Source of the DNA: a virus
Taxonomy: Duplodnaviria; Heunggongvirae; Uroviricota; Caudoviricetes
Virus record (IMG/VR): IMGVR_UViG_3300012347_000377
Coordinates: 64,001-128,000 of that record
DNA length: 64,000 bases
Direction: 5' to 3' (one strand)
Of the stretch, positions 6,469 through 64,000 are shown piece after piece. The translations under genes and the position numbers were made by a program. The stretch's first letter is position 1. Each line of letters opens with the position of its first letter. The notes beneath the pieces were generated by a model that saw only the letters and a program-made list of their open reading frames with translations, was not told where the DNA came from and did not search any database.

Positions 6469-7293
6469 ATGAAAAAAATACTCAGCGAATGTATTATTGT
6501 ATCAAAAGAAATTGATAATAAATTCATTCTTGCTAAAAACCGAGATAGGGCGTATAAACCTACATTAGAAGTCATTCATACTATTATGAATGGAATTGAG
6601 GTTGCATATCTCCATGACATCACAACCGATTGGAGTGAAGGTTTAAATGAGTATGGTATTGGTGTAGTAAACTCTGCATTGTTAGTTGGACACGATGAAG
6701 CAGAACATAAGTTAGTAAAAAAAGGTGGTGGTAAACCAGGAGCAGATGGTGCTAAGATGAGAAACATCTTATCTCAAAAAACTCTTAAAGATGCTTTAAA
6801 ATCATGTTTATCATATACAGGTAAAAGTAATTTACCCCTTAAAGGGCATACCTTTATATCATCACCACAACATATGATTAGTGTGGAGGCAACTTCTAAA
6901 CATAAACCAGATGTTAAATTACATAATAGTGAAAATCCAATAGTTAGAACCAATCACGGTCATATGTTTACCGATGCTGGTTATACACATGGTGAGAAAT
7001 ATCTATCATCTAAAATGAGAAAAATATCAGCAGAAAAATCAGTTGATAAAGTAGATGATTGGAAAGAGATTGCAATCGCAATGAGAAAAGAATTTTTTCC
7101 AAAAGAATCTCAATTAAATATGAGAAGACAATCAGAAAGTATGTTTACATCATCTCAAACCGTAATGAACTTAACTGATAAGATTTTGGAAATTACTTAT
7201 TTTGATTCACAAGTTAATGAATTCAAAGGTATTAAAACCGATTTACCAAATGGATATGTTCCAAAAATCAAAATACAAATCGTAAAAGCATAA
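6469..7293 (+). CDS. N-terminal nucleophile (Ntn) hydrolase, C45/C59-like
   Basis: E-CIIV...ILAKNRDR, WSEGLNEYGIGVVN, VRTNH. Confidence 0.7.
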   Translation: MKKILSECIIVSKEIDNKFILAKNRDRAYKPTLEVIHTIMNGIEVAYLHDITTDWSEGLNEYGIGVVNSALLVGHDEAEHKLVKKGGGKPGADGAKMRNILSQKTLKDALKSCLSYTGKSNLPLKGHTFISSPQHMISVEATSKHKPDVKLHNSENPIVRTNHGHMFTDAGYTHGEKYLSSKMRKISAEKSVDKVDDWKEIAIAMRKEFFPKESQLNMRRQSESMFTSSQTVMNLTDKILEITYFDSQVNEFKGIKTDLPNGYVPKIKIQIVKA

Positions 7294-44832: not shown

Positions 44833-44857
44833 TATACAATTAATAAACAAAAAAGTT

Positions 44858-45055
44858 ATGGCAAAATTAGATGAAAGTCAACAAATTTTAGAAGAGAGAA
44901 AGATTAAAGCATTAGAAAAAATTGCTAACTCTCTTGATGCATTGACAATTTGGTTTGAGGAAATTGATAAGGATGAGTGGAGTAATCGTATTCAGTATTA
45001 CTTATCAGAATGGCATCAAACTACCAAACCAAAAGACCCAACTATAAATGGCTAA
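44858..45055 (+). CDS. small hypothetical protein
   Basis: 65-aa ORF with promoter motif, coupled to next gene. Confidence 0.6.
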   Translation: MAKLDESQQILEERKIKALEKIANSLDALTIWFEEIDKDEWSNRIQYYLSEWHQTTKPKDPTING

Positions 45056-46448: not shown

Positions 46449-47914
46449 TGAAATTAGGAGTTTGTGTCCCATATAGAAATAGAGAATCTCATTTAAAAGA
46501 ATTCATTCCAACGGTTGGAAAATACTTAGAAGAACAAGGTATTGAATATTGTATGTATTTTGGTCATCAAACCGATGATAAATTATTCAATAGAGGTGCA
46601 ATGAAAAATATCGCAGCTGAACAAGCATTCAAAGATGGATGTGATTATATAGTTTGGCATGATATTGATATGATACCCGAAGAAGGATGTGATTACTCAT
46701 TTCCAAAAGAACATCCAATACACATCGCTACGAATATCTCTCAAATGGATTATAAGTTGAAATATGAGGAGTATTTCGGTGGTGCGGTGATATTCTCCAA
46801 AGAACAAGTTGAGAAGACTAATGGGTATTCTAATGATTATTGGGATTGGGGTATGGAAGATGATGATTTGTTTTGGAGATGTCAATTAGAAGGTTATGCT
46901 AATAATTCTTATATGGAATTTCCCCAAACACCTCAAACATTTTTACATTTTAATGGAAAATCATCACATATAAAAATTGATAAACATTCAGATTTAAGAA
47001 ACGTCACATCGCGTTCACATACAATTTCAGTTTTAGTTAGAGCAAATCAACAAGAAGAAAAAGTTCCAATTTGGTTGGTAGGTGATACTGAAAGAAGATT
47101 TTGTGAATATCCAATTATTAGAAGACCAGGTTATGATTATGGTATTTCATATAATAATAGTAGAGCATATACTGCACAACTTTGGGATAATGAACAAAAT
47201 CATTTATATCAATGGATGAAACGTTATGAAAATCAATGGAGTTGGGTGACACTTTCGGTTGATACTATCTCTCAAAATATACACTTTTATTTAAATGGTA
47301 AAGAATCTGATGCAAGACATGGAACTGGTACTCAATCTCCATTACATTACCAAAATCGTTTAAAAAGTTATGGTTTAGAAGATTGGTTTATTGGAACAAC
47401 TACATCGGTTGGTAAGAATGAAGTCAATCGTTGGTTTAAAGGTGATATAGCAGATGTTAAAATTTGGAATAGAGCATTATCACCAAATGAAATTGAAAAA
47501 ATACATACAGATTTCCCAACAGATGGATTGAAACTACATTATAATTTTAATCATCCAAATCAAAAAAATTCACCAAATGTTGCAATTGATTTGAGTGGAA
47601 ATGAAACAAATGGTTCAATCAATCGTTGTGAAGAAAGAACGGAAGAAATAAAAATTCCATATACAACAATTCCACATAGAATACCTGGTAGATTAAGGTG
47701 TTTACCTCATGTAGATGAAGGGTTAATTAATATTGGTGGAGTTGATAAATGGGCAAAGGGTGAAACTACTGCTAGAAATGAAAGAAGATATGTTTTACAA
47801 ATGCAACAAGGTGAATGGGATTATAAATCCGATGGAATTGCTCAACTAAATTATGAATTAGTTAGTATTGAAGAGCTAACACCTTCAGCAAAAATGATAA
47901 ATGTAAAATTGTAA
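46448..47914 (+). CDS. GT7 with inserted LamG domain, tandem paralog
   Basis: VCVPYRNR, FNRGAMKNI, WHDIDMIP, YFGGA, GYSNDYWDWGMEDDDL; FKGDIADVKIWNRALS. Confidence 0.85.
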   Translation: MKLGVCVPYRNRESHLKEFIPTVGKYLEEQGIEYCMYFGHQTDDKLFNRGAMKNIAAEQAFKDGCDYIVWHDIDMIPEEGCDYSFPKEHPIHIATNISQMDYKLKYEEYFGGAVIFSKEQVEKTNGYSNDYWDWGMEDDDLFWRCQLEGYANNSYMEFPQTPQTFLHFNGKSSHIKIDKHSDLRNVTSRSHTISVLVRANQQEEKVPIWLVGDTERRFCEYPIIRRPGYDYGISYNNSRAYTAQLWDNEQNHLYQWMKRYENQWSWVTLSVDTISQNIHFYLNGKESDARHGTGTQSPLHYQNRLKSYGLEDWFIGTTTSVGKNEVNRWFKGDIADVKIWNRALSPNEIEKIHTDFPTDGLKLHYNFNHPNQKNSPNVAIDLSGNETNGSINRCEERTEEIKIPYTTIPHRIPGRLRCLPHVDEGLINIGGVDKWAKGETTARNERRYVLQMQQGEWDYKSDGIAQLNYELVSIEELTPSAKMINVKL

Positions 47915-47927
47915 TATATATTAATAT

Positions 47928-49379
47928 ATGGAAGATATAGAAAAACAACAAGAAGATACTAAAAAGTTAAAAAAACAATTTGGTGGAGAAAATCCGTTCT
48001 ACGTTGATGTAAAGGAAAAATTAGATGTTATTGGTAAAGGTATGTGTCTTGCAAAATGGACACAAGTAACAATGCACCTACAATTGGGTCATACACATTC
48101 ATGTCATCACCCTCGTACTCATGCTATTTCTAAAAGTGAAATTGCTAGAAATCCATCTGCACTTCACAACACTACTTACAAAAAAAGAAGAAGAAAAGAA
48201 ATGTTGGAAGGTGAAAGACCATCAGAATGTGATTATTGCTGGAATGTAGAAGATAATTCAGACAGATTTTCAGATAGAACTTTTAAATCATCTGAAAGTT
48301 GGTCACTACCTTATTATAATGAAATTAAAAAATTAGATTGGAGAGCAGATTACAATCCAAAATACGTTGAAGTTGCTTTTTCAAATGCTTGTAATTTTAA
48401 ATGTTCATATTGTTCTCCTGCATTTTCAACAAAATGGATGGAGGAGATTGAAAAATATGGTGCATATCCAACAACTGATAAGTTTAATAATTTGGAGTAT
48501 GCAATTGCAGAAAACAAAATGCCATTTAAACAAACAGAGCAAAATCCGTATGTAGATGCGTTTTGGAAATGGTGGCCTGATTTATATAAAGACCTTCATA
48601 CATTTAGAATTACCGGTGGAGAACCATTAATGTCAAAAGATACTTGGGATGTATTGGATTATATCATCGAAAACCCAAATCCAAATAGAAATTTAAATCT
48701 TGCTATAAATTCAAACTTAGGTGTACCTGATAAGTTAATAGATAGATTTATAGAAAAAGTTTCAAAAATTTGTGATGAAAATAGAGTAAATGAATTTATC
48801 ATATTTACATCAGTTGATACATGGGGGGAACAAGCCGAATATATTCGTACTGGATTAGAGTTTAATCGTTTTTGGGATAATGTAAATAAGGTATTAGCAA
48901 AATGTCCAAGAGTTAATTTAACTTTTATGGTTACATATAATGCCCTATCAGTTCCAAACTATGATAAGTTAATTAATGGAGTTTATGGATTGAAAAAGCA
49001 ATATGGTTCTACTGATAGATATTGGAATTCTGCAGTATTTTTAGACACATCATATTTGAGATACCCATTACACCAAACGGTACAGGTATTGCCATATCAA
49101 TGGAGTGAGAATATTTTCAAACAAGCTCAACTTACCGATTTCTTAGGAGTGCCACTTTTTGAAAACATATTTATTGGATATTCCGATATTGAAATACAAA
49201 AAATTAAAAGAACATACGATTGGATGATTTCACCTCAAGATGCATCTACTCAAATGCATAATAGATATAATTTTGGTAAATACTTTACAGAACATGATAA
49301 ACGTAGAGGAACTAATTTTAACAAAACATTTCCAGAATTAGCTGAATTTTTTGAATTCACAAAAACAATACAACTATGA
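47928..49379 (+). CDS. radical SAM protein with N-terminal Twitch/SPASM-like Cys cluster
   Basis: CNFKCSYC, TGGEPL; CLAKW...SCHH...CDYCW. Confidence 0.9.
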   Translation: MEDIEKQQEDTKKLKKQFGGENPFYVDVKEKLDVIGKGMCLAKWTQVTMHLQLGHTHSCHHPRTHAISKSEIARNPSALHNTTYKKRRRKEMLEGERPSECDYCWNVEDNSDRFSDRTFKSSESWSLPYYNEIKKLDWRADYNPKYVEVAFSNACNFKCSYCSPAFSTKWMEEIEKYGAYPTTDKFNNLEYAIAENKMPFKQTEQNPYVDAFWKWWPDLYKDLHTFRITGGEPLMSKDTWDVLDYIIENPNPNRNLNLAINSNLGVPDKLIDRFIEKVSKICDENRVNEFIIFTSVDTWGEQAEYIRTGLEFNRFWDNVNKVLAKCPRVNLTFMVTYNALSVPNYDKLINGVYGLKKQYGSTDRYWNSAVFLDTSYLRYPLHQTVQVLPYQWSENIFKQAQLTDFLGVPLFENIFIGYSDIEIQKIKRTYDWMISPQDASTQMHNRYNFGKYFTEHDKRRGTNFNKTFPELAEFFEFTKTIQL

Positions 49380-50089
49380 GTAAAATAAGTTTAGATGGTC
49401 AAACTTCGTGGTTTATTTCACCCGATAGTCAATATGGATTAAGCACATATCCGATAAAAAAAATAACAACTGATAATTTTTCTTTTTTAACAAAAGTAAA
49501 AATTGATTGGGATAAAATGGATGCTAAGGGTGATACTAATCAATCAGGCATCGTTGTCATAAATGGGATGCATATGGGAATTACTGCATTCAAAACAGAA
49601 AAAGAAGATTGTTGGATTAATGCTAAAATTTGGACACAAAAAGATGATGGTAGCAATTTTGAATATGTAAATTCAATTTATATTACTGATTTAGACGAAG
49701 AACTTGAAATAGGATTTTCAGTTGATGTTCATAATAACGAAACATTTATTTATTGCAACGGAAAAACTAATAAAATAAAATTAGAAGGTAATATTGTAGA
49801 TTATAGTAATGCATTATTATGGATTGGTGCATCAATGCCACTTGGATATATTGATTCTAAATTTCATCACTTTTTGTTTGGAGAAATTTCATACGTTTCA
49901 ATTATACCAAGAACATTTACCGCAGCTGAATTTAAAGAAATATTTTTAGATTATAAAACTAATTTAATAAATAAAAGTGCTGTTGCTTCATTTAATTTTG
50001 AAGATCAAACTCCATATAAAATACTTGATATATCAGGTAATGGAAATAATTTAATTAAATTTGACAACTCATGGATGCCAGAGATTTAA
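49376..50089 (+). CDS. stand-alone LamG/concanavalin-like protein
   Basis: LDGQTSW, LWIG, GEISYVSI, DISGNGNN. Confidence 0.6.
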   Translation: MSKISLDGQTSWFISPDSQYGLSTYPIKKITTDNFSFLTKVKIDWDKMDAKGDTNQSGIVVINGMHMGITAFKTEKEDCWINAKIWTQKDDGSNFEYVNSIYITDLDEELEIGFSVDVHNNETFIYCNGKTNKIKLEGNIVDYSNALLWIGASMPLGYIDSKFHHFLFGEISYVSIIPRTFTAAEFKEIFLDYKTNLINKSAVASFNFEDQTPYKILDISGNGNNLIKFDNSWMPEI

Positions 50090-51489
50090 ACACTATACCA
50101 ATTACTAATTTTGTGTTTGATTTTAGAACACCCGAAGGTTATTTGCCATTTGGATATACCAAACAAACTATTGGTATAAATGTTATAAAAAAATTAAATA
50201 AAATTCATGAATCATTTACAGGATATTATCCACCATTGGAATCACCAAATGATTTTAAATTAAATAGAACTGCTGGATTTCAAACTTATATAGTTGAACA
50301 AACGCCAAATACAAATTATCGTTTAACTACCGAATTAAAACAAGAAATTGATGAAACCCAATTGTATTTAGTGATATTAGAATCATTAAATGTAAATAAT
50401 TTATATGAATATTATGGTTCTGATAAATTTGATTTAAGTGATTTTTTTTCACCTCAATTGATAAAATTAATTAAAGATAATAAAAACTTTAAAATAGTTT
50501 TTATGGATTATAGGGAGGGTGCATATCCACATTTTGAATCTTTTTTAACAAAAATTGATGATTTTTTAAATAAACATAATATAAATCATAAAAATAAAGT
50601 TATAATATCAACAAACAATAATTTTATAAATGATACTATAAATTTAAAAAAATACAAACATAGAATTTCAGTTTATTGTAATAACAATTATTTACTAACA
50701 GCTGGAAAGTATATATCGGAATTACGTGTTGCAAATAATAGTATAACTGAAAATGATTATGAGTATTCAATTCAACAAGATATAAATTATGATTTTAAAG
50801 ATAAATACTTTTTAATGTATAATCGAAATTCTGATAGAATACATAGATCATATTTTTTAAATAAATTATATAAAGAAAATTTAATAGATAAGGGTTATAT
50901 ATCATTTTTTGAAAATTCTCATTTTGAAAACTTTGTAAATAATTCAAATCATTATCCTGAATTGAATTTAGAATATGAAGATATATTGGATATAAAAAAT
51001 AACTATAAAAATTATTATCCATTAATTATAGATAGTAATGATGGCGAAAAGGTTGCAGATTTTCATAATTTTTTAAGTAGAAAAGATGAATATGAAAACA
51101 GTTATTTCACAATAGTTTCGGAAACAAATGCCGAATCAAAATATTGTTTCATAACCGAAAAAACTACAAAACCAATAATGAATTTACATCCATTTATTAT
51201 AATGGGGAATCCAAAAATATTATCTGTTTTAAAATCATATGGATTTAAGACATTTAGTAAATGGTGGGATGAATCATATGATGATGAAATAGATTTTAAA
51301 ACTCGTACTCAAATGATTTTAAATATTGTAAAAGATTTATGTAGTAAATCAAAAGAAGAGATGACTTCAATGATTAAAGAGATGGAAAGTGTTTTGATTC
51401 ATAATAAAAAAGTATTACATAAATTATATACAACAAAACAATATCAAAAAGAATTTTTTAACAACGTAATAGATAAGGGTCTTATATGA
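50071..51489 (+). CDS. putative glycosyltransferase, GT10-like (paralog 2)
   Basis: YNR...HR, IVSET, FITEKTTKPI..LHPFII.G, GFKTF..WWDESYD. Confidence 0.55.
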   Translation: MDARDLNTIPITNFVFDFRTPEGYLPFGYTKQTIGINVIKKLNKIHESFTGYYPPLESPNDFKLNRTAGFQTYIVEQTPNTNYRLTTELKQEIDETQLYLVILESLNVNNLYEYYGSDKFDLSDFFSPQLIKLIKDNKNFKIVFMDYREGAYPHFESFLTKIDDFLNKHNINHKNKVIISTNNNFINDTINLKKYKHRISVYCNNNYLLTAGKYISELRVANNSITENDYEYSIQQDINYDFKDKYFLMYNRNSDRIHRSYFLNKLYKENLIDKGYISFFENSHFENFVNNSNHYPELNLEYEDILDIKNNYKNYYPLIIDSNDGEKVADFHNFLSRKDEYENSYFTIVSETNAESKYCFITEKTTKPIMNLHPFIIMGNPKILSVLKSYGFKTFSKWWDESYDDEIDFKTRTQMILNIVKDLCSKSKEEMTSMIKEMESVLIHNKKVLHKLYTTKQYQKEFFNNVIDKGLI

Positions 51490-52451
51490 AAGTATTAATC
51501 ACAGGTGGTGCAGGTTACTTAGGTTCAGTTTTAACTGAGCGATTATTGAATAGTGGATATAGTGTAACTATATTAGATAATTTGATGTATAATCAAACAT
51601 CATTAATACATTATTCACACAATAAAAATTTTGATTTTATCTATGGAGATGTCAGAAATCATAAATTGTTAGAAGAATTAGTTCCATCATTCGATGTAGT
51701 AATTCCTTTAGCAGCAATCGTAGGATTCCCCGCTTGCGATAGAGATAGAGATTTGGCAACTGCAGTAAACTATGATCATGTTAGAAAAATATGTGAAATA
51801 GTTAAAGATACAAAAATAAGGGTGGTATATCCAAATACAAATAGTGGATATGGAATAGGAGAAAACGGAGAGTGCACTGAAGAAAGTCCACTTAACCCAA
51901 TTTCACATTATGGTGTGACAAAGGTAAAAGCAGAAAGAGAGGTTTTAAATATCGGTGGAGTTTCAATTAGATTAGCAACGGTATTCGGTTCATCTCCGAG
52001 AATGAGAATGGATTTATTGGTAAACGAATTTGTTTACAAAGCATTAACTGATAAATATATTACTATTTTTGAGAAAAACTTTACTCGTAATTACATTCAT
52101 ATTAGAGATGTTGCTAAAACATTCCAATATATGATAGAAAATTATGAAAAATTTAGTGGAGATGTATTTAATGTAGGATTATCATCTGCTAATTTAACTA
52201 AACAACAATTGGTAGAAAAAATTAAAGAATATGTTCCTAATTTTGCAATCACATATTCAGATTTTTATGAAGACCCCGATAAAAGAGATTATGTGGTTTC
52301 AAACGCTAAAATCGAAGCAACAGGCTGGAGTCCAGATTGGAGTTTAGATGATGGTATTGTTGAACTAATCAAAACATACACAATTTTAATACAAGATTTA
52401 TCATCAAAATATAGGAATGGATTTCCATTAGGTTATGGCACAAGGACGTAG
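51486..52451 (+). CDS. NAD-dependent nucleotide-sugar epimerase/dehydratase (extended SDR)
   Basis: ITGGAGYLG, YGVTK, RLATVFG, RNYIHIRD. Confidence 0.9.
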   Translation: MKVLITGGAGYLGSVLTERLLNSGYSVTILDNLMYNQTSLIHYSHNKNFDFIYGDVRNHKLLEELVPSFDVVIPLAAIVGFPACDRDRDLATAVNYDHVRKICEIVKDTKIRVVYPNTNSGYGIGENGECTEESPLNPISHYGVTKVKAEREVLNIGGVSIRLATVFGSSPRMRMDLLVNEFVYKALTDKYITIFEKNFTRNYIHIRDVAKTFQYMIENYEKFSGDVFNVGLSSANLTKQQLVEKIKEYVPNFAITYSDFYEDPDKRDYVVSNAKIEATGWSPDWSLDDGIVELIKTYTILIQDLSSKYRNGFPLGYGTRT

Positions 52452-53019
52452 TATATTTTACAAAGAAAGAGATTGGAACGATTTTCACTTTTATAATGCT
52501 TCGGTATTACCAGAAGTGAAGATTGTTCAACCATCTATATATCACGAATATCGTGGTTCAATATCAACAACATATCATTCAGAATATTACGATAGATTAC
52601 TACCAGCAAACGAACGTAATGAAGGATTGGAGTTTAAACACGATAGATACTCAAAATCAAAATTCGGTGTGTTACGTGGATTACATTACGATGAAAAGAC
52701 TTGGAAATTAGTAAGTTGTATTCATGGTAAAATTTATTTAGTAGTATTGGATATGAGAGAACAGCAACCCAACTATGGTAAGTGGGAATCGTTTGTAATT
52801 TCACCCGAAACTGCAACTCAAGTTTTAATACCACCTATGTTCGCTAATGGTCATTTTGTAATGGAAGATGATTCGATATTCACATATAAAATGGCATATA
52901 AGGGTGAATATAATGATGAGAATAAACAAAAAACAATTGTATTTAATGATTCAAGATTTGGTATAGATTGGCCGGTTCAATCACCGATTCTTTCAAAAAG
53001 AGATAGAAATGGAAATTAA
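52435..53019 (+). CDS. rmlC: dTDP-4-dehydrorhamnose 3,5-epimerase-like cupin
   Basis: SKFGVLRGLHY, KLVSCIHGKIYLVVLD, LIPPMFANG, GIDWP. Confidence 0.85.
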   Translation: MAQGRSIFYKERDWNDFHFYNASVLPEVKIVQPSIYHEYRGSISTTYHSEYYDRLLPANERNEGLEFKHDRYSKSKFGVLRGLHYDEKTWKLVSCIHGKIYLVVLDMREQQPNYGKWESFVISPETATQVLIPPMFANGHFVMEDDSIFTYKMAYKGEYNDENKQKTIVFNDSRFGIDWPVQSPILSKRDRNGN

Positions 53020-53647
53020 AAATTTAGAATATCATGAAGATAGATGGTTGGGTGGAAGTTTATCGGCCGAACAACTAATTCAATTTGAAGATGATATTAT
53101 TAAGCATTGGGAAAATGGTGAAATAACTGGTCCTATACACTTATCAAACGGAAACGAAAATCAACTAATTGAAATTTTCAAAAAAATCGGTGCACAAGAT
53201 TGGGTATTTTCAACATGGCGTTCACATTATCATGCGTTATTACATGGAGTTGAACCACAAACGTTAAAACAAAAAATATTAGATGGTAAATCAATAACAA
53301 TTGTTGATAAGGCTTCTAATTTTTATTCATCTGCAATTGTAACCGGAACTTTACCGATTGCATTAGGTGTTGCTAAATCAATTAAGTTAAAAGGTGGTGA
53401 TGAAAAGGTGTGGTGTTTCATTGGTGATATGAGTTTTGAAACTGGTGTGTTTTATGAAGTTCATAAATATGCAAGAAACTATGATTTACCTTTATATTTT
53501 ATAGTTGAAGATAATGAAGTTTCAACCAACACTCCAACCTTAGATACATGGGGAGGTATTCAAAGAGAAATACCACAAGATGTAATTTATTATAAATATA
53601 AATCAAAATATCCGCATTACGGAACTGGAAAATGGGTAGTCTTTTAA
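53009..53647 (+). CDS. ThDP-dependent E1 alpha-like subunit, short (212 aa)
   Basis: HLSNGNE, STWRSHYHAL, AIVTGTLPIALG, GDMS...EDN ThDP motif. Confidence 0.88.
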   Translation: MEIKNLEYHEDRWLGGSLSAEQLIQFEDDIIKHWENGEITGPIHLSNGNENQLIEIFKKIGAQDWVFSTWRSHYHALLHGVEPQTLKQKILDGKSITIVDKASNFYSSAIVTGTLPIALGVAKSIKLKGGDEKVWCFIGDMSFETGVFYEVHKYARNYDLPLYFIVEDNEVSTNTPTLDTWGGIQREIPQDVIYYKYKSKYPHYGTGKWVVF

Positions 53648-54774
53648 ATTTCGTATGGTTCAGTCATAAGTTAGAAAAAAATGGAGATGATAATACTACA
53701 ATCGCAGGCCCTTTATTTTGGAATGTAGATAAAAGTAAGTATTCACACACCTTTAATGGAGAAATACGCGAAGGATATAAAAATTTAATATTAATGGAAG
53801 GTAAATGTAGCCTTCAATCATTTTCTAATTTAGATGATGATTTAATAAATTTTATTAACAATAATGATGTTAAATTATTAGCAGTAAGTCTTGCAGACCC
53901 ATCTTCATATTCTAGTTATATCGAAACAATTGAATTTTTAAATAAAACCATTCCTAATAAATTTATAATAATTGATAGTAATACCGCATTACCTGAAAAA
54001 TATGTAATCGATTATTTTTTAGAAGAGGCATCATCCAGTAATTCAAAATCTACTTTATTTAAATATAAAAATGAATTGGGATATGTGAGTGAAGATATTG
54101 AAATTGGTGAGTTGGATAATTTTAGAACAAAAAAATTTATATCATTTAATAGAACTACCGATAAACACCATCGTGCACGATTACTACACGAATATTTAAC
54201 TAATGATTATTCAGATTCTTACTTTAGTTTTTTATCACCATTAGAACATTTAGGTGATATTGTTTCAGTTGGTAGTATAACACATCGTAGAGATTTTTAT
54301 AATAAACAAATTCCAATCGAATTGGATACTATGGATTGTGAAAATAAAAGTGGATTTGGCACTAACGCTACTTTTAAAAAACATTTATTTTTAAATTCTT
54401 GTATTAATTTAGTAACAGAAACATCATTTGATTGCAATCAATTATTTATTTCTGAAAAAATACTAAAACCAATAATTTGCTATCAACCATTTATAGTATT
54501 TGGTCCATATCAGTATTTGAAGAGGTTAAAAACGTATGGTTATAAAACATTTTCAGATGTCTGGGATGAGAGTTATGATGAGATTGAGGATTGGCGAGAG
54601 AGATTAAAAGTTCTTATAGATTTAGTTAATGGTTTAAATTCAAAATCAATTGAAGAAATCAATGAAATATATCTAAAAACTAAAAATATATGTATATATA
54701 ATAGGGAATTGTTTAACTCATTAGAGTTAGATAGTTTTCCACAAATTTTTAAAAATATAGAAAATGAATGGTAA
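53632..54774 (+). CDS. putative glycosyltransferase, GT10-like (paralog 3)
   Basis: FNR...HR, LVTET, FISEKILKPI...PFIV.G, GYKTFSDVWDESYD. Confidence 0.55.
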   Translation: MGSLLNFVWFSHKLEKNGDDNTTIAGPLFWNVDKSKYSHTFNGEIREGYKNLILMEGKCSLQSFSNLDDDLINFINNNDVKLLAVSLADPSSYSSYIETIEFLNKTIPNKFIIIDSNTALPEKYVIDYFLEEASSSNSKSTLFKYKNELGYVSEDIEIGELDNFRTKKFISFNRTTDKHHRARLLHEYLTNDYSDSYFSFLSPLEHLGDIVSVGSITHRRDFYNKQIPIELDTMDCENKSGFGTNATFKKHLFLNSCINLVTETSFDCNQLFISEKILKPIICYQPFIVFGPYQYLKRLKTYGYKTFSDVWDESYDEIEDWRERLKVLIDLVNGLNSKSIEEINEIYLKTKNICIYNRELFNSLELDSFPQIFKNIENEW

Positions 54775-55729
54775 AAAGGTTTTAATCACAGGTGCCAACG
54801 GATTGGTTGGTAATTACATGGTTCAAAAATGTATCGATAGAGGTGCATTTGTAACAGCGGTAGATATTCACGAACCAACAAATCAATTGGAAAAGTATAA
54901 AGATGAAAACTACCAATTCATCAAAGCAGATTTGCGAGAATTTTCAAATTGTAAAAAAGTAGTAGAAGGACAAGATGTAATTTTTCACATCGCAGGTGTG
55001 AAGGGTTCTCCTAAAAGAGCAGCAGAACAACCTGCTGATTATTTTGTTCCAATGTTACAATTCAATACTAATATGATGGAAGCATCAAGATTGGAAGGAG
55101 TTGAGTGGTATGTATATACCTCAACCGTTGGTGTATATCAACCAGCAGAAGTATTCTACGAAGATGATGTTTGGAAAACATTCCCATCAGAAAAAGATAA
55201 ATATGCAGGATGGGCTAAAAGATTGGGTGAACTTCAAGCAGAAGTTTATTCAGTATCATATGATTGGAATAAAGCATCAATTGTAAGACCGGCAAACATT
55301 TATGGTAGACATGATAATTTCGGTCCAGAATCAACGGTAATCGCATCGTTAATCAAACGTTTATTTGGTGAAAAAGAACACCCATTAGTATGTTGGGGAG
55401 ATGGTTCTCCAATTAGAGATTTTATATATGCAGGTGATGTTGCAGATGGCATTATTCAATCATATGAACAAAAATTAACACAACCAATTAACTTAGGTAG
55501 TGGAACTGGTGTCACCATTAAAGAACTTGCAGAAACTCTTGTAGAAATCTATGAAGATATGTATGGAGTTAAAGTTGGAATTGAATGGGACCCAACTAAA
55601 CCAAATGGTGATACAAAACGTTTGATGAGCACTGAAAGAGCCGAATCATTTGGTATAAAACAACAAGTATCTCTTAAAGAGGGATTGAAAGAAACGATTG
55701 ATTATTATTTAAACGAATACAAAAAATAA
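54764..55729 (+). CDS. GDP-L-fucose synthase-like epimerase/reductase
   Basis: ITGANGLVG, GWAK, RPANIYGRHDNF, WGDGSPIRDFIY. Confidence 0.85.
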   Translation: MNGKKVLITGANGLVGNYMVQKCIDRGAFVTAVDIHEPTNQLEKYKDENYQFIKADLREFSNCKKVVEGQDVIFHIAGVKGSPKRAAEQPADYFVPMLQFNTNMMEASRLEGVEWYVYTSTVGVYQPAEVFYEDDVWKTFPSEKDKYAGWAKRLGELQAEVYSVSYDWNKASIVRPANIYGRHDNFGPESTVIASLIKRLFGEKEHPLVCWGDGSPIRDFIYAGDVADGIIQSYEQKLTQPINLGSGTGVTIKELAETLVEIYEDMYGVKVGIEWDPTKPNGDTKRLMSTERAESFGIKQQVSLKEGLKETIDYYLNEYKK

Positions 55730-55732
55730 GTT

Positions 55733-56725
55733 ATGAAAAAAACAGATAGAATTTTAGTTACAGGTGCAAGTGGATTTATTGGTTCACATCTTTTAAGATT
55801 ATTACATCAAAAGGGTTATACTAATTTACGTGCTACTTCTCATAGTAGAGGATTAAGAAACGATTTTGATGGATGTGAAACTATTCCATTATTTAAAGGA
55901 AACTTACAAGATGCTAAATTTTGTGCAGAGGTTTCCGAAGATATTGATGTAGTATTTCATTGTGCAGCAAATACATCAAATGCATTAGATACTAAATTCA
56001 ACCCACTATTACACGTTACTCCAAACGTAGAGATGAATACTAATTTAATGGAACAAAGTTGGAAAAACAAAGTTCGTAAATTCTTATTTATATCATCAAA
56101 TACAACATACCCAGATATGGGAACTGAATTTTGTAGTGAAGATGTAAATGTTCATGCAACTCCATTATTACCGGTTTATAAAGCAGTTGGTGGTATGAAG
56201 AGATATGGTGAAATGTTATGTGATTTCTTTTCTAATCAAATTCACGACCCAATGCAATGTTTGATTGTTAGACCTTCAAACGCATTCGGCCCGAATGATA
56301 AATTTGATTTTGAAAAATGTCACGTTACACCTGCAAACATTCGTAAAGTAGCAGATGGGTTAAATCCAATACCTGTTTGGGGAGATGGAACGGAAGTGAG
56401 AGATTTATTACACGTTGAAGATATGGCAGATGGTTTTATTTTCGTAGCAGAAAATTGTGATACATACGATATTTACAATGTGTGTTATGGTGAAGGATTT
56501 ACTGTCAATGAAACTTTAAATACTATTAAAGAATTAGATGGAAACACAAACCCAATCGAATATGTGAATAACAAAGCACCAATGATTCCAATCAGATTAC
56601 TTTCTTCTAAGAAGATTAATCAATTAGGTTGGAAACCAAAAAGAGATTTAACACAGGCGTTAAAAGAAACGATTGAGTGGTATAAAGCAAACAAACATTT
56701 ATACAACCCAGATTCTCGTCCATAA
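55733..56725 (+). CDS. GDP-L-fucose synthase-like epimerase/reductase, second copy
   Basis: VTGASGFIG, GGMK, RPSNAFGPNDKF, WGDGTEVRDLLHVED. Confidence 0.85.
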   Translation: MKKTDRILVTGASGFIGSHLLRLLHQKGYTNLRATSHSRGLRNDFDGCETIPLFKGNLQDAKFCAEVSEDIDVVFHCAANTSNALDTKFNPLLHVTPNVEMNTNLMEQSWKNKVRKFLFISSNTTYPDMGTEFCSEDVNVHATPLLPVYKAVGGMKRYGEMLCDFFSNQIHDPMQCLIVRPSNAFGPNDKFDFEKCHVTPANIRKVADGLNPIPVWGDGTEVRDLLHVEDMADGFIFVAENCDTYDIYNVCYGEGFTVNETLNTIKELDGNTNPIEYVNNKAPMIPIRLLSSKKINQLGWKPKRDLTQALKETIEWYKANKHLYNPDSRP

Positions 56726-56736
56726 ATAAAAATTGA

Positions 56737-57504
56737 ATGAGTTATAATAAAATATATTCAGGTGGTTCAAGTTTCAGTTGTGCAGGCGGGTTAAATTGGG
56801 ATGAAGTTCAAAATTTATATAATGATATTCATAATATTAAAATAGATAAACATATTGATTTTGCATATCCTAATTTAATATCAAAAAAGAATGATGTATC
56901 AATAGTAAATGATTCAATTCCCGGTGGTTCTGCAAATAGAATGATTAGAAAAACCTTTGATTATATACATAATCATCAATTAGAATCTAAAACAACTTTA
57001 TTTTTATTAGAAATACCTCCCATGTGGAGAGATGAGTTTTATTCAAATGATTTTGATAAAATGTTTAACATCACATGGGGAGTATTAAAAAATTCAGATG
57101 ATAATACTGATATAGCAAATGGATATGATAAGTCTGAATCTTTATTAATCAAAAACGATTTAAAAAATTACTTTTCAAAGTTTATTAACGTAGATTTTGA
57201 GATTAAGAAAACTATGAATAACATACTTGGATTATTATCATATTTAAAATTAAATAATATTCAATATGTGTTATTAAATGGATTTGAATTTTACACATTC
57301 TTACTAAAAAATAATTTAAAATTGGATTATAATTTTTATTGGATAGATGGGAGTATTGAACCAATTAATATTTCATTCATTAATAAAAATTTAACAATAA
57401 CACAAGAATTAAACGATATTTATACAGATAATCATTTGGGTTATTTTGGAAATGAATACGTAGCAAATAATTTAAATGAATTTATAAAAAATACTATAAA
57501 ATGA
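56737..57504 (+). CDS. SGNH/GDSL-like protein
   Basis: GGSSFS, YPNLI, NDSIPGGSANRMIR, DNH near C-terminus. Confidence 0.5.
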   Translation: MSYNKIYSGGSSFSCAGGLNWDEVQNLYNDIHNIKIDKHIDFAYPNLISKKNDVSIVNDSIPGGSANRMIRKTFDYIHNHQLESKTTLFLLEIPPMWRDEFYSNDFDKMFNITWGVLKNSDDNTDIANGYDKSESLLIKNDLKNYFSKFINVDFEIKKTMNNILGLLSYLKLNNIQYVLLNGFEFYTFLLKNNLKLDYNFYWIDGSIEPINISFINKNLTITQELNDIYTDNHLGYFGNEYVANNLNEFIKNTIK

Positions 57505-58049
57505 GTGCACCACAATTCACACCTTACTTAGATGCATTAACTGAAGCAATGAAATTATCGATGGAAGACCCATCTACTATTTTCATCGGTCAGCAAATTG
57601 TGTATTATGGAAATCCAATGAGTAAAACAATCGAAGGTTTACCAAAAGAACGAATGATTGAAACACCGGTAATGGAAGAAACTCAAATGGGAATGAGTGT
57701 TGGATTAGCTATGGCAGGTCATAGAGTTGTTTCATTCTATCCACGTTGGGATTTTCTTATTTGTGCATCAAATCAATTGATAAATCATTTAGATAAATTG
57801 GAAGCAATGTCTGATGGTGAATATTGTCCAAATGTAATTATTAGAGTTGGTAAAGGTGCAGATAAACCACTAGATCCAGGTCATCAACATAAAGCAGATT
57901 ATTCAGACCAATTTGCATCGATGTTACAACATATCCCGGTTATTAAATTAGATTCGGCTGATAAAATTTTACCTGCATATAAACAGGCATTAACTACAAA
58001 CGGCCCAATTATATTAGTTGAATATCCAGAAATGTATTATGAGAATTAA
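57501..58049 (+). CDS. ThDP-dependent E1 beta-like subunit, pyrimidine-binding domain only (182 aa)
   Basis: FIGQ, TPVMEETQMGMSVGLAMAG, FLICASNQLIN, GHQH. Confidence 0.85.
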   Translation: MSAPQFTPYLDALTEAMKLSMEDPSTIFIGQQIVYYGNPMSKTIEGLPKERMIETPVMEETQMGMSVGLAMAGHRVVSFYPRWDFLICASNQLINHLDKLEAMSDGEYCPNVIIRVGKGADKPLDPGHQHKADYSDQFASMLQHIPVIKLDSADKILPAYKQALTTNGPIILVEYPEMYYEN

Positions 58050-59502
58050 AAAGGTATTTGATGTTCAAGGCCCACATGGATTTGTTCCAAACGGATGGAA
58101 TTATAAATACACTAATGATATGTGGGATTATAATTTCATAGTTACTCATGAAACCATTGCTGCATTTAATAAAAACTATGAACAATTATCTGTTTATGAA
58201 TGTAATTTAAATATTTCAACTCATAATATCGATAATCGACATATATCAGAATTAACATTTAATCCATCTGATTCAAAAGTATATGAAAATGGTGAAGCTG
58301 GATTAGTAGTATATACAATACATCCGTTTGGAAGTATTGATACTTGTTTGGGTAATAACTTAAATTATCATCAAAATACTCATTGTTTTGATTTTATTTC
58401 AGAACAATCAAAAGAATATATTCGTAAAGCTTCAAATTATTATTTAATTTTTGATTATAGTAGTGAGGGAGATATAAAACCAGAGTTATTTAAAACTTTA
58501 CATGAAAAATGTATTGAATTAAATATTCCACCAAAAAAGATTTTAGTTATAACATCATCAATGAACACACGTGATTTGTATGATATGTATTTAAAGGATA
58601 ATCCTACTACCGAACAATTTTATACTGCATATTATTGCTGGCCCATTTTACCAAAAAGTGGTGAAACCAGAGATATAATCCAAAACCGAAATGTAATTGA
58701 ATTTAATGGTAATTCGAATGTAAATTCATTAATGAGTTCGGATGAATTTAAAAATGCAACAAATCGAAATAAGAAAGCATTAATTTTCAATAGAAGAGTT
58801 GCATCACATAGAGTAATACTTTTAAGTTTATTACATAATGATAATTTAATAGATAATGTAGATTATTCAATTGATTTATCATTATCGGTAATAAAAAATA
58901 TCGGATTAGATTTGGCACATGATACTGGATATAATGGAGAGCCTTATCTAAAGAATGATAGAGTAAAAAGTAATATGATAAATGGATTTTTTAAATTAAA
59001 CAAAATCAATAAAAAAACCATTGATTACGAAGATATAAATGGAGTATGGGGATTCGGATTTGAGAATAAAAGAAATTATTTAAATACTTATTTTAGTGTA
59101 ATAACCGAAACTATATTTTATGAATATGGAAATTATATTTCAGAAAAATCGTTTAAAGGTCTAGCACACTTACATCCGTTTGTCATAGTTGGTAAACCGG
59201 GAATATTGAAATATCTAAAATCAAAAGGATTTAAAACATTTTCAGATTTTTGGGATGAGAGTTATGATGAAATTGAAGATAATTCCGATAGAATGGAATC
59301 GGTATATAAAACCATAAAATCATTAATTGAAAAAACAAATGAAGAATGGGATGAGTTGAATACTAAATTATTACCAATATTAGAACACAATCGAAATACT
59401 TTAATAACAATTAAAGAAACGGAAGTAAACACAACATATATTAATAACCTTTATAAATTATTTAATGATGAACCTAATACAGAAAATTTTTACTTATTTT
59501 AA
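58039..59502 (+). CDS. putative glycosyltransferase, GT10-like (paralog 4)
   Basis: FNRR..SHR, VITET, YISEKSFKG..HLHPFVI.G, GFKTFSDFWDESYD; ATG 58039 preferred. Confidence 0.55.
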   Translation: MRIKKVFDVQGPHGFVPNGWNYKYTNDMWDYNFIVTHETIAAFNKNYEQLSVYECNLNISTHNIDNRHISELTFNPSDSKVYENGEAGLVVYTIHPFGSIDTCLGNNLNYHQNTHCFDFISEQSKEYIRKASNYYLIFDYSSEGDIKPELFKTLHEKCIELNIPPKKILVITSSMNTRDLYDMYLKDNPTTEQFYTAYYCWPILPKSGETRDIIQNRNVIEFNGNSNVNSLMSSDEFKNATNRNKKALIFNRRVASHRVILLSLLHNDNLIDNVDYSIDLSLSVIKNIGLDLAHDTGYNGEPYLKNDRVKSNMINGFFKLNKINKKTIDYEDINGVWGFGFENKRNYLNTYFSVITETIFYEYGNYISEKSFKGLAHLHPFVIVGKPGILKYLKSKGFKTFSDFWDESYDEIEDNSDRMESVYKTIKSLIEKTNEEWDELNTKLLPILEHNRNTLITIKETEVNTTYINNLYKLFNDEPNTENFYLF

Positions 59503-59610: not shown

Positions 59611-59619
59611 ATATTTATA
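59611..59619 (+). promoter_or_regulatory. putative late promoter ATATTTATA
   Basis: 23 nt before ATG 59643, GAGG in between. Confidence 0.65.
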
Positions 59620-59642: not shown

Positions 59643-62600
59643 ATGAGCACATTATCTACATTTTTAGCAGAACAAATATTATTAGAGGAATCTACTCCCA
59701 TAAAAAAGACAGTTGTCGTTTATGTGGGTAGATTTCAACCATTTCATAAAGGCCATTACGCAACGTATTCAAATCTTGTAAAAAAGTTTGGAAAAGATAG
59801 TGTATTTATCGGAACATCTAATAAAACCGAAAAGCCAAAATCTCCTTTTAATTTTAGAGAAAAAAAACAAATAATGACAACTATGTTTGGTATTCCATCA
59901 AACAAAATAGTTGAAGTTAAAAATCCATATGCTCCAACTGAAATACTTAAAAATTTCGATGAGGAAACAACTGCATTTGTAACGGTAGTTGGTGAAAAGG
60001 ATAGTAGTAGATTGGGTGGTAAGTATTTTGCTAAATGGGATGGACATCCAACTGAAGGATATAAAACCAAAGGATATGTGTATGTTTCACCTGCATTAAG
60101 TTCAATTAGTGGAACTGATGTAAGAATTGGATTAAGTAATGGTTCAGAAGATCAAAAACAAAACTTCTTTACCGATACTGCATATCCAAAATTCAATAAA
60201 CAAATATTTAAATTAATTTCAGATAAATTAACAGAAGCAATAACCTTACCGGTTGAAGTAGGTGATACTCTTTTGATGGGTAAATTTAAGAACAAAAAAG
60301 TTGTTGTTAAAACCATTGGAACTGATGAACATGGTATGCCAACTATTAATGGTAAAAAAGTAGTGACATTTAGAATGATTAAAGAAGGAACGCAGATATT
60401 TTTCGAAGATGAGAATGAAGATGCTAAATATACTCATATTGGGTATGGTAGATACAAATTAAAAGGTAAGGAAGATGATGATAAATCTCCTACGTTTACC
60501 AAAGATGATAGTGGTAAGTATATTCAATCACAAACTCAAACAAACGAACCTAAACAAGATACTCCGCAGGGAACTGCAGTTAAAGGGGCAAAGATGTTCG
60601 CTCATGATCCAAATGTTAAACAACCAACAACTACCGAACCAACTAATAAAGATTGGACTGATGGTAAGGATGGGTGGGAAATATTAGATGACCCTAGATC
60701 AAAAGTAAAAAACATTAGAAAATACACCGATGAAGAACTTCAAGGTGAAACTAGTGAATATTTTGATAATGAAGTGACTAAAAAAGTTGCACCAAATGCA
60801 TTTACCGATGAATCTGATATGATTCAACAAATTAAAGATGCAAAACCGGTTTATTTATCATCTGAAGAAATGCAAAATATGAATAACTCCGATATGAGTG
60901 ATATTCTTTCTGCAAGTGAAAATGGTGGTAAAGATGCAATGTTAAAATTGGGTAAAGAACGTGCTACTAAATATGGTAAAGATTGGGATAGATTGGAAAG
61001 AGGTATTGCTAAAGGAAATGCAGTTCCATCACCAATTGTATTAAAAGATAAAACTGGTCAATTACATTTATTAGCAGGAAATACTCGTCTAATGTCATTT
61101 ACTGCAAGTGGTAAAAAATTACCCGTAAAGATTATCAATTATGATGGTGAATTTCAATATGAAAATTCCGATTCTAAAAAAACTGATGTAAGTAAATACA
61201 GCATCAAAAATTTAAAAAGAAAAATTAGTGGTTGGGCTGAAAAAGAAAGAGAATTCTTTACTAAAAATCAACAAAGACCAAATTCCGAAGTTCGTAGAAC
61301 TATTGGTGAAATGATTGCCGATAAAACTAAAGGAGCAATTCAAGCAATTAAAAAGATTGCACAACACGAAATTAAAGAATTTAAAGAGGCAGGAGTTGGT
61401 GCAGCAAAATTCTTCAAAGGAGAAGAATTAACCGATGAAGATAAAAAGGCTCTAAAAGCAATTGCTATAAAAGTAGCCACAACTGCTTTATTTGGAGCAG
61501 TGACCGGTGGAGCATCACATGGAGCAATTGCATTTGGAAAACACGTTGCAATTGAATTAATTCCTCACGTAGTTGGTGAAACTATTTTGAAGGGAATAGG
61601 TAAGGCTGCGATATTTGCAGGTGTAGATGAAGAAAACGAAGAAATGTATTTACAGAAATTTGGTGAATTGATTGCTAAAAATATGCAAGAAATGAAAATA
61701 CCAAGTGATATTCTTCAAAAATCAATTATGACTTACGAAAGTGAAGGTGAGAAAGAAGAACAATCAGTTAGTGAAAAATATCTAAGTGATTTCAGTAAAG
61801 TTGTTAAGGAAATGATTGATGAAGAAACTGAATTACAACAAAATGAAATGAGTAAATCTCAATTAAATCAAGTTGAAAAATACGCAGAGAAACAATTATC
61901 ACCCGAAGATATTGAATTTACAAATCATTTCTTTGATAGAGTTAATGATGCTAGAAATGGAAAAGAAATTTCGGATGCAGAATTGACTGGGTTTTTCAAA
62001 AGATTAGCACGTCATAAAAAGGAATTTAAAGAATTCTTAGAAAAGTTCCATCAGATTGTTGTTAAAGATAAAAGAAACGATATAAATATTCCATTTGTTA
62101 AACAATCCAACCATATCATTGCTAAAACGGTAATGAGAAAGGGTGATTTCAAATCAACAAATCAAACTTTAACAATTGAAGATAAAATTCCTGGTGGCAA
62201 ATCTACTGGTATGAATTTATATGATATAGCAAATTATCATAATTGTGATATTGATGAATTATCAAATCAATTACAGATTGGTATTAAAGTAGAAATGGAA
62301 CACACTTCAGATAGAAAAATTGCTGAAGAAATTGCAATGGATCATTTATATGAAGACCCTAAGTATTATACTAAACTTGCTACTATTGAAACTGAAGATA
62401 CTATATCTGAAATCAGTGCAATGGGGGGTTCGTTCCAAAACGATGGAAACGCAACAACTGGTAATTCATGGAATGATGATTGGAGTGATTATGATAATCA
62501 AGATTACTATTTAGATAATTTAGAAGGTTGGTCAACATATAGTGATAATCCATCTGAATATGAAAAGAAAAAATCAACCGATCAAGTATTACCTATCCAT

Positions 62601-64000
62601 AATCATAATCATGATAAGACATCAAAATATGATCGTATCTTAAAATATGGGTATAAAGAACCATTAGAACAATTAAAAGATTTTGATACGAAAATAACTG
62701 AAGCATATACAAAAGGACAATTATTTGCGGGTAATCTTAAAATAAGTGGAGTAGTAGTTCCAATTGAAGTAGAATTAGTTGGTGCAGATAATAAAAAGAA
62801 TGCGTTTATCACTAAGGTAATTAATATTGATAAAAAGTATTTGAGTAAATTACCATCAAATGGTATATTAGAAATACCAGCAAGAATATTCCGTTTTACG
62901 GGAGGTTGGAGAAAAATAAAAACTCCATCTGTATTTGAATCGATATTAACTGAAGGTGGAGCATATGGTCATATGAACCATCCATTTGATACTGATATTA
63001 ATTTAACGTTTGGTCAATTAAAAGATATTGTAAATCGTGCATTAGATGGTGAGTTAGAACTTGCTAGAGAGAAAACTGATGGACAGGCACTTGCAATTAG
63101 CTGGGTAGGTGGAAGATTAGTTGCTGCTCGTAATAAAGGACACTTAAAAAATAGAGGTGCGGGTGCATTAGATATAAAAGGTGTTGCGGATAAATTTACT
63201 GGTAGAGGAGAATTAGAGAAAGCTTACAACTTTGCAATGCAAGACCTTAGTAAGGCTATAAAAGCACTTTCTGAAAAACAAAGAGAGAAGATTTTTAAGA
63301 ATGGTGCTTGTTTTATGAACATTGAGGTAATATACCCAACATCAGTCAATGTAATCCCATACGGACAACCTCTATTAGTATTCCACGGAACAATGGAATA
63401 TGATATGGAAGGTAATGCAATTGGGGAAGACCAACAATCAGGTAAGATTTTAGGTGGTATGATTAAACAAGTAGAACAAAACGTTCAGGCTAATTATACT
63501 TTACAAGGCCCACCGGTTCTATCATTACCAAAATCACAAAACCTTTCATCTAAAAAAGGTGAATACAATTCGAAAATCTCAAAATTACAAAAAGAATTTG
63601 GATTAGGAGATACTGCCGGTGTTGCCGAATATCACCAAGCATGGTGGGAAAACTTTGTAGATAAGAAATCACCATTGAAGTTAGATAATAACACTAAAAT
63701 GGGATTGGTTAAGAGATGGGCGTTTGGTGATAAAGGATTTAGAATAGATGCTAAAAATATAACAGATACTAAAGTGTTAGATTGGGCTACTAAAATTGAT
63801 AAAGAAGATCAAGGAAAAATCACTAAAGAAAATTTAATGAAATTTGAAGATATTTTCTTAGGAGTAGGTGCAGAAGTTCTCTCATTCACATCATCAGTAT
63901 TGACTGTTAATCCAGACAAGGCTGTTAGAGATATGAAAAAGAGATTAGACCAAACTATTAGTGATGTTAAGAAATCGGGTGACCCTAAAAAGATTGAAAA
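59643..64000 (+). CDS. giant multidomain protein, 3'-truncated (>1452 aa; not in ORF track): NMNAT-like, ParB-like, RNase-like, DUF5661-like, ligase-like (DUF6267-like)
   Basis: Translated by hand with no stop to the window end; GRFQPFHKGH (59727), LLAGNTRL (about 61070), FTNHFFDRVND (61917), GIKVEMEH...DHLYEDPKYY (62280-62370), EKTDG (63069). Confidence 0.9.
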   Translation, partial: MSTLSTFLAEQILLEESTPIKKTVVVYVGRFQPFHKGHYATYSNLVKKFGKDSVFIGTSNKTEKPKSPFNFREKKQIMTTMFGIPSNKIVEVKNPYAPTEILKNFDEETTAFVTVVGEKDSSRLGGKYFAKWDGHPTEGYKTKGYVYVSPALSSISGTDVRIGLSNGSEDQKQNFFTDTAYPKFNKQIFKLISDKLTEAITLPVEVGDTLLMGKFKNKKVVVKTIGTDEHGMPTINGKKVVTFRMIKEGTQIFFEDENEDAKYTHIGYGRYKLKGKEDDDKSPTFTKDDSGKYIQSQTQTNEPKQDTPQGTAVKGAKMFAHDPNVKQPTTTEPTNKDWTDGKDGWEILDDPRSKVKNIRKYTDEELQGETSEYFDNEVTKKVAPNAFTDESDMIQQIKDAKPVYLSSEEMQNMNNSDMSDILSASENGGKDAMLKLGKERATKYGKDWDRLERGIAKGNAVPSPIVLKDKTGQLHLLAGNTRLMSFTASGKKLPVKIINYDGEFQYENSDSKKTDVSKYSIKNLKRKISGWAEKEREFFTKNQQRPNSEVRRTIGEMIADKTKGAIQAIKKIAQHEIKEFKEAGVGAAKFFKGEELTDEDKKALKAIAIKVATTALFGAVTGGASHGAIAFGKHVAIELIPHVVGETILKGIGKAAIFAGVDEENEEMYLQKFGELIAKNMQEMKIPSDILQKSIMTYESEGEKEEQSVSEKYLSDFSKVVKEMIDEETELQQNEMSKSQLNQVEKYAEKQLSPEDIEFTNHFFDRVNDARNGKEISDAELTGFFKRLARHKKEFKEFLEKFHQIVVKDKRNDINIPFVKQSNHIIAKTVMRKGDFKSTNQTLTIEDKIPGGKSTGMNLYDIANYHNCDIDELSNQLQIGIKVEMEHTSDRKIAEEIAMDHLYEDPKYYTKLATIETEDTISEISAMGGSFQNDGNATTGNSWNDDWSDYDNQDYYLDNLEGWSTYSDNPSEYEKKKSTDQVLPIHNHNHDKTSKYDRILKYGYKEPLEQLKDFDTKITEAYTKGQLFAGNLKISGVVVPIEVELVGADNKKNAFITKVINIDKKYLSKLPSNGILEIPARIFRFTGGWRKIKTPSVFESILTEGGAYGHMNHPFDTDINLTFGQLKDIVNRALDGELELAREKTDGQALAISWVGGRLVAARNKGHLKNRGAGALDIKGVADKFTGRGELEKAYNFAMQDLSKAIKALSEKQREKIFKNGACFMNIEVIYPTSVNVIPYGQPLLVFHGTMEYDMEGNAIGEDQQSGKILGGMIKQVEQNVQANYTLQGPPVLSLPKSQNLSSKKGEYNSKISKLQKEFGLGDTAGVAEYHQAWWENFVDKKSPLKLDNNTKMGLVKRWAFGDKGFRIDAKNITDTKVLDWATKIDKEDQGKITKENLMKFEDIFLGVGAEVLSFTSSVLTVNPDKAVRDMKKRLDQTISDVKKSGDPKKIE

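Follow-up and report, generated by a model that had tools for sequence, protein, structure and literature searches.

Can the head protease of a tailed phage free a set of working enzymes from one long polyprotein? In eukaryotic RNA viruses such cleavage is a hallmark, and the head protease of tailed phages trims propeptides and destroys scaffolds. The question is raised by a 64,000-nucleotide stretch of phage DNA, positions 64,001 to 128,000 of IMG/VR record IMGVR_UViG_3300012347_000377 (the window), which ends within a gene for a chain of unrelated enzyme modules. The first-pass annotation of this DNA had described a hidden polyprotein of more than 1450 amino acids (aa) that leaves the window, with linkers of the kind cut by T4 gp21. 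In the full genome it is indeed a single open frame, complete at 1502 aa, with its stop codon at genome 128151, 151 nt beyond the window (window-equivalent 64151). Is this chain carried into the head and cut there? Or does it stay whole, act in the cytoplasm, or serve the prohead core? Here we argue that it is probably a late-made internal head polyprotein that is packaged, cut by the head protease and delivered in pieces with the DNA.

The source genome is a single virus record of 288,673 bp with direct terminal repeats, from a T4-like phage. Three short genes separate the polyprotein gene from the terminase, 1.4 kb downstream, and the portal, a Peptidase_S77 head protease of the T4 gp21 family (genome 136380–136973, E 1.3e-26) and the capsid protein follow in that order. 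In all 66 loci with enough sequence the terminase lies 0.7–3.3 kb 3' of the polyprotein. By terminase, the closest cultured phages are Microcystis phage Mel-JY01 and Flavobacterium phage immuto (55–56%). Near-identical DNA occurs in freshwater metagenomes; the RNA-library contigs from a single study span most of the polyprotein gene as well as the genes around it, and so are no sign of transcription.

The chain (Table 1) runs from a short leader through an HxGH nucleotidyltransferase (module 1) and a series of middle modules to a ligase-fold enzyme. T4 gp21 cleaves by the rule L/I-X-E (PMC9026906, PMC12991175), and Asp at the cleavage position blocks processing (PMC9026906). Eight boundary strings had been proposed to follow this rule. 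All eight stand where they were placed; six obey it, and QQNE (Q-N-E) and LTIE (T-I-E) do not fit. A canonical site, E727, is found 8 residues ahead of QQNE. There is no canonical site between E248 and E556, so the junction of the ParB-like domain and the Gly/Ala hairpin lacks one; the ~470-aa block that holds both (aa 256–727) has no conserved cleavage site inside. The idea that each module is a separately freed enzyme is not supported: these two share one fragment, and several modules of 50–100 aa are without a catalytic signature. In addition, three modules had been overlooked, at aa 256–300, 924–1020 and 1021–1099.

Does the motif mark the places where modules have been exchanged? Breakpoints were set at the ends of BLAST alignments, with no regard to the motif, for 41 close relatives after dereplication and for a diverse set of 133 proteins. 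Among the close relatives hydrophobic-x-Glu lies near 55% of module starts and 63% of ends, against 18% of random positions (maximum 27%). The stricter [IL]xE is present at 46.5% of these breakpoints and in 24.8% of shuffled windows (maximum 30.2%); in the diverse set the figures are 33.7% and 18.5%. The Asp version, [IL]xD, is not enriched at breakpoints. At the junction before the ligase, all 79 distinct contexts have Leu or Ile at P3 and 77 have Glu at P1, while P2 is free and the upstream modules differ, a pattern that matches the T4 gp21 rule (PMC9026906, PMC12991175). Conservation of Leu/Ile and Glu beside a freely varying middle residue and linker argues for selection on a protease motif, and not for decay.

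Where would such a motif be read? Leader site E10 is conserved in 41 of 54 aligned relatives, and the capsid protein, the protease and the probable scaffold of the phage have the same motif near their N-termini. An N-terminal [IL]xE alone is not specific, being present in 57 of 280 other genes. The profile of module 1 hits two cyanophage proteins, S-SZBM1 gp140 (E 8.5e-12) and S-CREM2 gp154 (E 5.8e-9), both of which open with T4-like leaders. Both were detected in purified virions, with only 2 and 3 peptides (PMC9146016 and PMC10665884, respectively). Clokie 2010 makes no mention of a cytidylyltransferase. The virion protein adjoining gp140, S-SZBM1 gp139, was considered as a module homolog and rejected, as it has no homology to any module. 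Activity of T4 gp21 is confined to the completed, assembled prohead (PMC9958956), which, with selection on the motif, would place the chain in the prohead. Packaging and gp21-type cutting of the polyprotein have strong comparative support.

The same evidence bears on a second explanation, that the chain is a late cytoplasmic enzyme complex which is never packaged, is cut in the cell or not at all, and aids translation late in infection, together with the bS21 and tRNA genes. The late motif upstream of the gene would suit it, the cytoplasm is the usual site of RNA ligases and NMNAT, and the Nampt encoded in the genome would be a cytoplasmic partner for NMNAT. We consider such a complex quite unlikely, because T4 gp21 works only in the assembled prohead (PMC9958956), the leaders match capsid-targeting sequences and the module-1 homologs are virion proteins.

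Several observations weigh against a packaged and cut polyprotein. The breakpoint counts are non-independent, because relatives have junctions in common. A motif this short also turns up within folded modules, at E91, E904, E1211 and E1262, and two junctions are non-canonical. Among distant relatives the ligase junction is without Glu in 27 of 126 (Cys in 13, Met in 11) and with Glu in 99, Leu/Ile being kept; this loss may mean that the motif is partly structural and that cutting there is dispensable. The virion data are limited to distant homologs of module 1, and the DUF6267 gene beside S-SZBM1 gp140 is leaderless and not among the listed virion proteins.

Some of these points are what would be expected of a chain that is packaged but mostly uncut, whose leader targets it and is removed and whose internal motifs are relic leaders or recombination seams without a functional need. 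The ligase junction has been lost in about a fifth of the distant relatives, some junctions are non-canonical, and the processing of homologous head proteins differs among giant phages (PMC5694885). Relics do exist, for absorbed whole leaders are observed. A mostly uncut chain is nevertheless unlikely in our judgement. Leu/Ile and Glu are retained as P2 and the linker vary, which indicates selection on the motif; an exposed L/I-x-E in the prohead is expected to be cut; and a chain of 170 kDa, which exceeds T4 Alt in size, is ill suited to ejection.

How did the leaders come to lie inside the chain? In three loci (L050, L067, L079) the entire leader of the ligase gene is embedded in the fused chain. 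Four others (L006, L008, L009, L013) are split loci with two neighbouring genes, a chain headed by HxGH and a 414-aa gene made up of leader plus ligase. Of the 43 distinct stand-alone homologs of the RegB-like module, 40 begin with a leader that contains [IL]xE, several near the T4 capsid-targeting form. Seven separate genes of the genome match modules inside the chains of relatives, most of them right after a Glu site. From the split loci, the absorbed leaders and the leader-bearing stand-alone homologs, fusion of leader-tagged genes is shown comparatively, and the linkers appear to derive from the old leaders of fused neighbouring genes. The product of the separate gene at 6469–7293 is 37% identical over 267 aa to aa 370–631 of P0312, the polyprotein of a relative, in which this module starts after Glu; cleavage could expose an N-terminal Cys.

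Linkers that serve both as cut sites and as exchange points would let any tagged gene join or leave the chain with its function kept. At 75–100% identity the ligase module is present on 80 viral contigs, in proteins of 414–1999 aa; 147 distant relatives were also compared, and there too modules are shuffled, in chains of up to about 2000 aa. Across relatives, module content proved to be swapped, lost and reordered between chains. The middle modules are present, absent or reordered, and the HxGH transferase and the ligase-fold enzyme are the constant parts. The chain holds two or more biochemically disparate domains and is mosaic between relatives. Strains that are 95–99% identical differ by an inserted 67-aa module, placed at the double site ahead of the ligase, and further insertions and deletions also fall at Glu sites. 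Extra modules in relatives include a CCA-adding/poly(A) polymerase head, HD, AAA_33/zeta kinase, 2H and GNAT domains. Short versions occur in Mel-JY01 (WWT39297: module 1, a site, ligase) and in immuto (gp191: leader, DUF5661, site, RegB-like module, in reversed order). Since both are cultured phages, a direct test is feasible. In another cultured phage, Sinorhizobium phage phiM12, the C-terminal part of the 602-aa gp458 (L084:2537-4345) is a RegB-like module.

This variation also bears on whether the chain might be a prohead core or scaffold accessory, packaged and cut, with pieces that work within the head, in DNA condensation or end processing, or are thrown away, and do not enter the host as effectors. 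The T4 core proteins gp22, gp67 and gp68 are cut by gp21 at many sites and their fragments leave, several of the small modules here are strongly charged (pI 4.5–10), and the locus is fixed beside the terminase. Yet the sites separate folded domains with full catalytic motifs, and the cargo differs between close strains, which fits host-facing proteins and not a scaffold. We regard a core accessory as very unlikely.

Table 1. Features of the polyprotein locus and of a related separate gene. Positions are those of the window unless stated.
Feature	Position	Strand	Remarks
Separate gene, 7-residue leader ending LSE then Cys	6469..7293	+	homologous to P0312 internal module
Late-type motif TATTTATA	59612..59619	+	reverse complement of T4 late promoter consensus
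Polyprotein gene	59643..64000, to genome 128151	+	open frame in genome
N-terminal leader, capsid-targeting-like	59643..59690	+	(I/L)-x-E sites E10, E15, E16
Module 1, HxGH nucleotidyltransferase (NMNAT/cytidylyltransferase-like), ~20 kDa	59691..60236	+	aa 17-198, ends at site E198
Module 2, basic beta module, 50 aa	60237..60386	+	aa 199-248, flanked by sites
~470-aa block: YTHIGYG module, linker, ParB/Srx-like (tentative), helical with Gly/Ala hairpin	60408..61823	+	ends E727
RegB/RelE (BECR)-fold RNase-like module, 13 kDa	61848..62180	+	aa 737-846, predicted structure pLDDT 92
DUF5661 module	62181..62411	+	non-canonical Glu site before, ends at E923
Acidic module, function unassigned	62412..62702	+	aa 924-1020, ends at E1020
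Basic module, 79 aa, function unassigned	62703..62939	+	aa 1021-1099, mobile among relatives
Tandem site linker, E1099 + E1104	62940..62954	+	67-aa module inserted here in near-identical strains
RNA-ligase-fold covalent nucleotidyltransferase, 44 kDa, large helical insert	62955..64000 (aa 1105-1502)	+	predicted structure, motifs

The ligase-like module had been correctly recognised. Its predicted structure (pLDDT, the predicted local distance difference test, 96) has RNA and DNA ligases as its ten best structure matches (Z 7.0–9.2; for the top match, root-mean-square deviation (rmsd) 4.1 over 188 aligned residues). RNA ligases outrank DNA ligases, by a margin within about 2 Z units. All catalytic motifs are kept: motif I Lys-x-Asp-Gly, acidic motifs III and IV, and the Lys of motif V. 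K40, D42, G43, E124, E370, G371 and K382 (module numbering) are invariant in 118 sequences. The module shares its nucleotidyltransferase fold with the ATP-dependent RNA ligases T4 Rnl2, Naegleria Rnl5 and trypanosome REL1 (Z 8.0–9.2, ~190 aligned), and motifs I, III, IV and V are invariant in it. It differs from them in its low identity (11–15%), in a helical insert (~180 residues) and in a Gly/His segment that is invariant at the N-terminus. In this segment (aa 1105–1113, window 62955–62981) the first Gly and two His, invariant in the 118 sequences, stand exactly where cleavage is predicted to create an N-terminus. The amino group so freed may have a role; the Cys or Met at P1 in some lineages argues that it is not required.

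In a Foldseek search of PDB, neither the ligase nor the RegB-like model had a match at E 0.001. The ligase module has no Pfam match to DUF6267 (PF19782), the profile comparison with S-SZBM1 gp141 was not significant, and the resemblance to DUF6267 is one of features and fold only. A structural likeness to the 591-aa fusion protein of S-PM2 was found (Foldseek E 1.4e-5), and 1762 clusters at 50% identity match the module. The fixed chain ends would constitute a new ligase-fold family and an HxGH transferase, and a RegB-like family would be added.

The RNase-like module is supported by structure. The best match of the aa 737–846 model is T4 RegB (Z 8.2, 101 of 110 residues aligned, rmsd 3.0), and RelE-type RNases come next (RelE Z 6.5). 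The REGB_T4 profile scores E 1.5e-4, below its cut-off. Within the family alignment of 55 RegB-like sequences a His, a Phe, an Arg and a Glu are invariant. The module is of the BECR fold as judged from the model, and nuclease activity is predicted. Identity to T4 RegB is 11%, and unlike RegB, which is early and cytoplasmic, the family described here has head-targeting-like leaders. The DUF5661 assignment, aa 861–917, likewise stands, above the Pfam cut-off. Matches to Peptidase_C39 and to microcins in the chain were rejected as below cut-off.

Module 1 carries the HxGH motif and a Rossmann-like N-terminal half, CTP_transf_like (aa 26–118) scores above the Pfam cut-off, and its nearest relatives are NMN adenylyltransferases. 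It was first called NMNAT-like. The HxGH transferase part of this label holds; the specific part is weakened, as the module falls far below the cut-off of every NCBIfam NMNAT model and only the generic TIGR00125 domain passes. The genome holds two further HxGH genes. The small beta module was found as claimed. It is 61–90% identical among relatives, differs in chain position between them and has no PDB sequence match. Within the ~470-aa block, aa 336–506 are tentatively a ParB/Srx-like domain. The label is tentative because it is based on a conserved LxAGNTR motif and a weak SbnI match (E about 1); no Pfam match and no significant PDB sequence match was found. The helical domain that follows (aa 514–702) does contain the Gly/Ala hairpin, whose hydrophobicity is moderate (sliding-window mean up to 1.5).

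What might these enzymes do? RNA end repair early in infection is the likeliest job of the two fixed enzymes, because relatives carry CCA-adding, HD, kinase and 2H modules; we give it slightly less than an even chance. NAD+ supply is possible as a side role, since the genome has a Nampt gene; this is weakened by the failure of module 1 as an NMNAT and by the two other HxGH genes. The Nampt (nicotinamide phosphoribosyltransferase, PF04095, E 3.5e-43) is at genome (G000) positions 9172–10650, and no fused NadM-type partner was found near it. The chain had been proposed to be a counter-defence payload. No direct evidence for this and no PADLOC match was obtained, and the cargo of relatives is mainly RNA end-repair enzymes; a counter-defence role is plausible. 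A weak PADLOC match of a helical stretch to AbiTi was rejected.

The proposed course of events is as follows. The polyprotein would be synthesised late, and its leader would act like the T4 capsid-targeting sequence and bring the whole chain into the prohead core. The gp21-family protease would then cut after Glu in the exposed linkers to give about nine pieces of 5–53 kDa. By analogy with T4 IPI and Alt, the pieces would enter the host with the DNA, and RNA-end repair or remodelling straight after injection would counter host RNase defences. The chain itself grew, as comparison shows, by fusion of neighbouring leader-tagged genes, with modules gained, lost and reordered at the linkers. We lean, by a little more than an even chance, towards a true head-cargo polyprotein strategy, with one tag, one gene and interchangeable modules freed by the prohead protease, and with the HxGH transferase and the ligase-fold enzyme at work in the first minutes of infection.

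How does this compare with known systems? T4 IPI-III and Alt carry a capsid-targeting sequence and are cleaved by gp21 after L/I-X-E (PMC9026906, PMC9958956, PMC3012670). What they and the present chain have in common is a short leader with (I/L)-x-E at its end, a head protease of the gp21 family, a probable late context and variable cargo behind a conserved tag. In T4, however, there is one tag per small protein and the internal proteins and Alt are trimmed only at their ends, whereas the chain has many folded modules with sites between them, none homologous to IPI-III or Alt. The polyvalent proteins, which are predicted to be injected (PMC5512222), are alike in joining unrelated domains in one mosaic chain encoded near virion genes, ParB-like and BECR RNase domains among them. 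They are unlike it in that release through a built-in metallopeptidase was proposed, head-protease sites between domains were not described, and neither an HxGH-plus-ligase frame nor linkers derived from leaders were found in the description (PMC5512222). Pfam, PHROG and NCBIfam revealed none of the polyvalent hallmark domains (MPTase, ArdC-N, MuF, ART) in the polyprotein; one relative has a weak metallo-protease match. The cytidylyltransferase and DUF6267 genes of T4-like cyanophages (S-SZBM1 gp140/gp141, S-CREM2 gp154, the S-PM2 591-aa fusion) come close, with a homologous module 1, the same leader type, virion association of cyanophage proteins by mass spectrometry and, in S-PM2, a protein structurally like the ligase module. 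They have one or two domains, no shuffled chain and no sequence-level match between the ligase and DUF6267. The family was not found described in the literature on phage polyproteins and head proteases, nor was anything found on DUF6267 and Mel-JY01; subscription journals lay outside both searches. In the papers searched, neither T4 internal proteins nor polyvalent proteins were reported to have sites for a head protease between modules that can be exchanged.

If this reading is correct, release of shuffled cargo by the head protease extends the T4 targeting system. Injected phage proteins could be found by a simple rule, with module boundaries and likely mature N-termini predictable from sequence, and the variable middle of the chain would be a catalogue of host-facing effectors readable by motif. 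It would also provide a lead to the function of the unexplained cytidylyltransferases in cyanophage virions.

The gene is preceded, 24 nt ahead of its start, by the late-type motif TATTTATA. A late motif had been noted here, and it is real and non-randomly placed; the T4 late promoter itself differs from it, being its reverse complement. Of 58 copies of ATATTTAT, 42 are in non-coding DNA, which makes up 11% of the genome, mostly 25–45 nt 5' of structural genes. TATTTAT is found within 80 nt upstream of the polyprotein in 35 of 44 complete relatives. Genome-wide, the motif keeps this orientation on the coding strand, with 63 versus 26 copies by strand.

Other genes of the genome carry similar leaders. 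A cluster of small genes at G000 237746–246106 has MIKLxxLLxE-type leaders and late motifs, and several of its members match polyprotein modules of relatives; the 521-aa gene at G000 244541 looks like a second small polyprotein. In an isolated gene at G000 16857–17471, homologous to a module of P0282, the likely true start yields a T4-like leader. Immediately 5' of the polyprotein is a long block of glycosyltransferase/epimerase and related genes (41846–59502, +), which also precedes it in L008. A bS21-like gene (L001:17186-17449, G000 139186), recognised by its resemblance and by what is annotated at the equivalent place in Mel-JY01, shares its strand with the head genes. By analogy with PMC9723584, its presence among head genes suggests a Bacteroidota host; the bS21 genes described there are in a reverse-strand arrangement, unlike that of this genome. 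Between portal and capsid, two genes (L001:12368-13651 and L001:15443-16666; G000 134368 and 137443) have many [IL]xE sites or leaders and are candidates for core proteins or further cargo. The 407-aa gene between portal and capsid begins with a small module that is also found inside the polyproteins of relatives.

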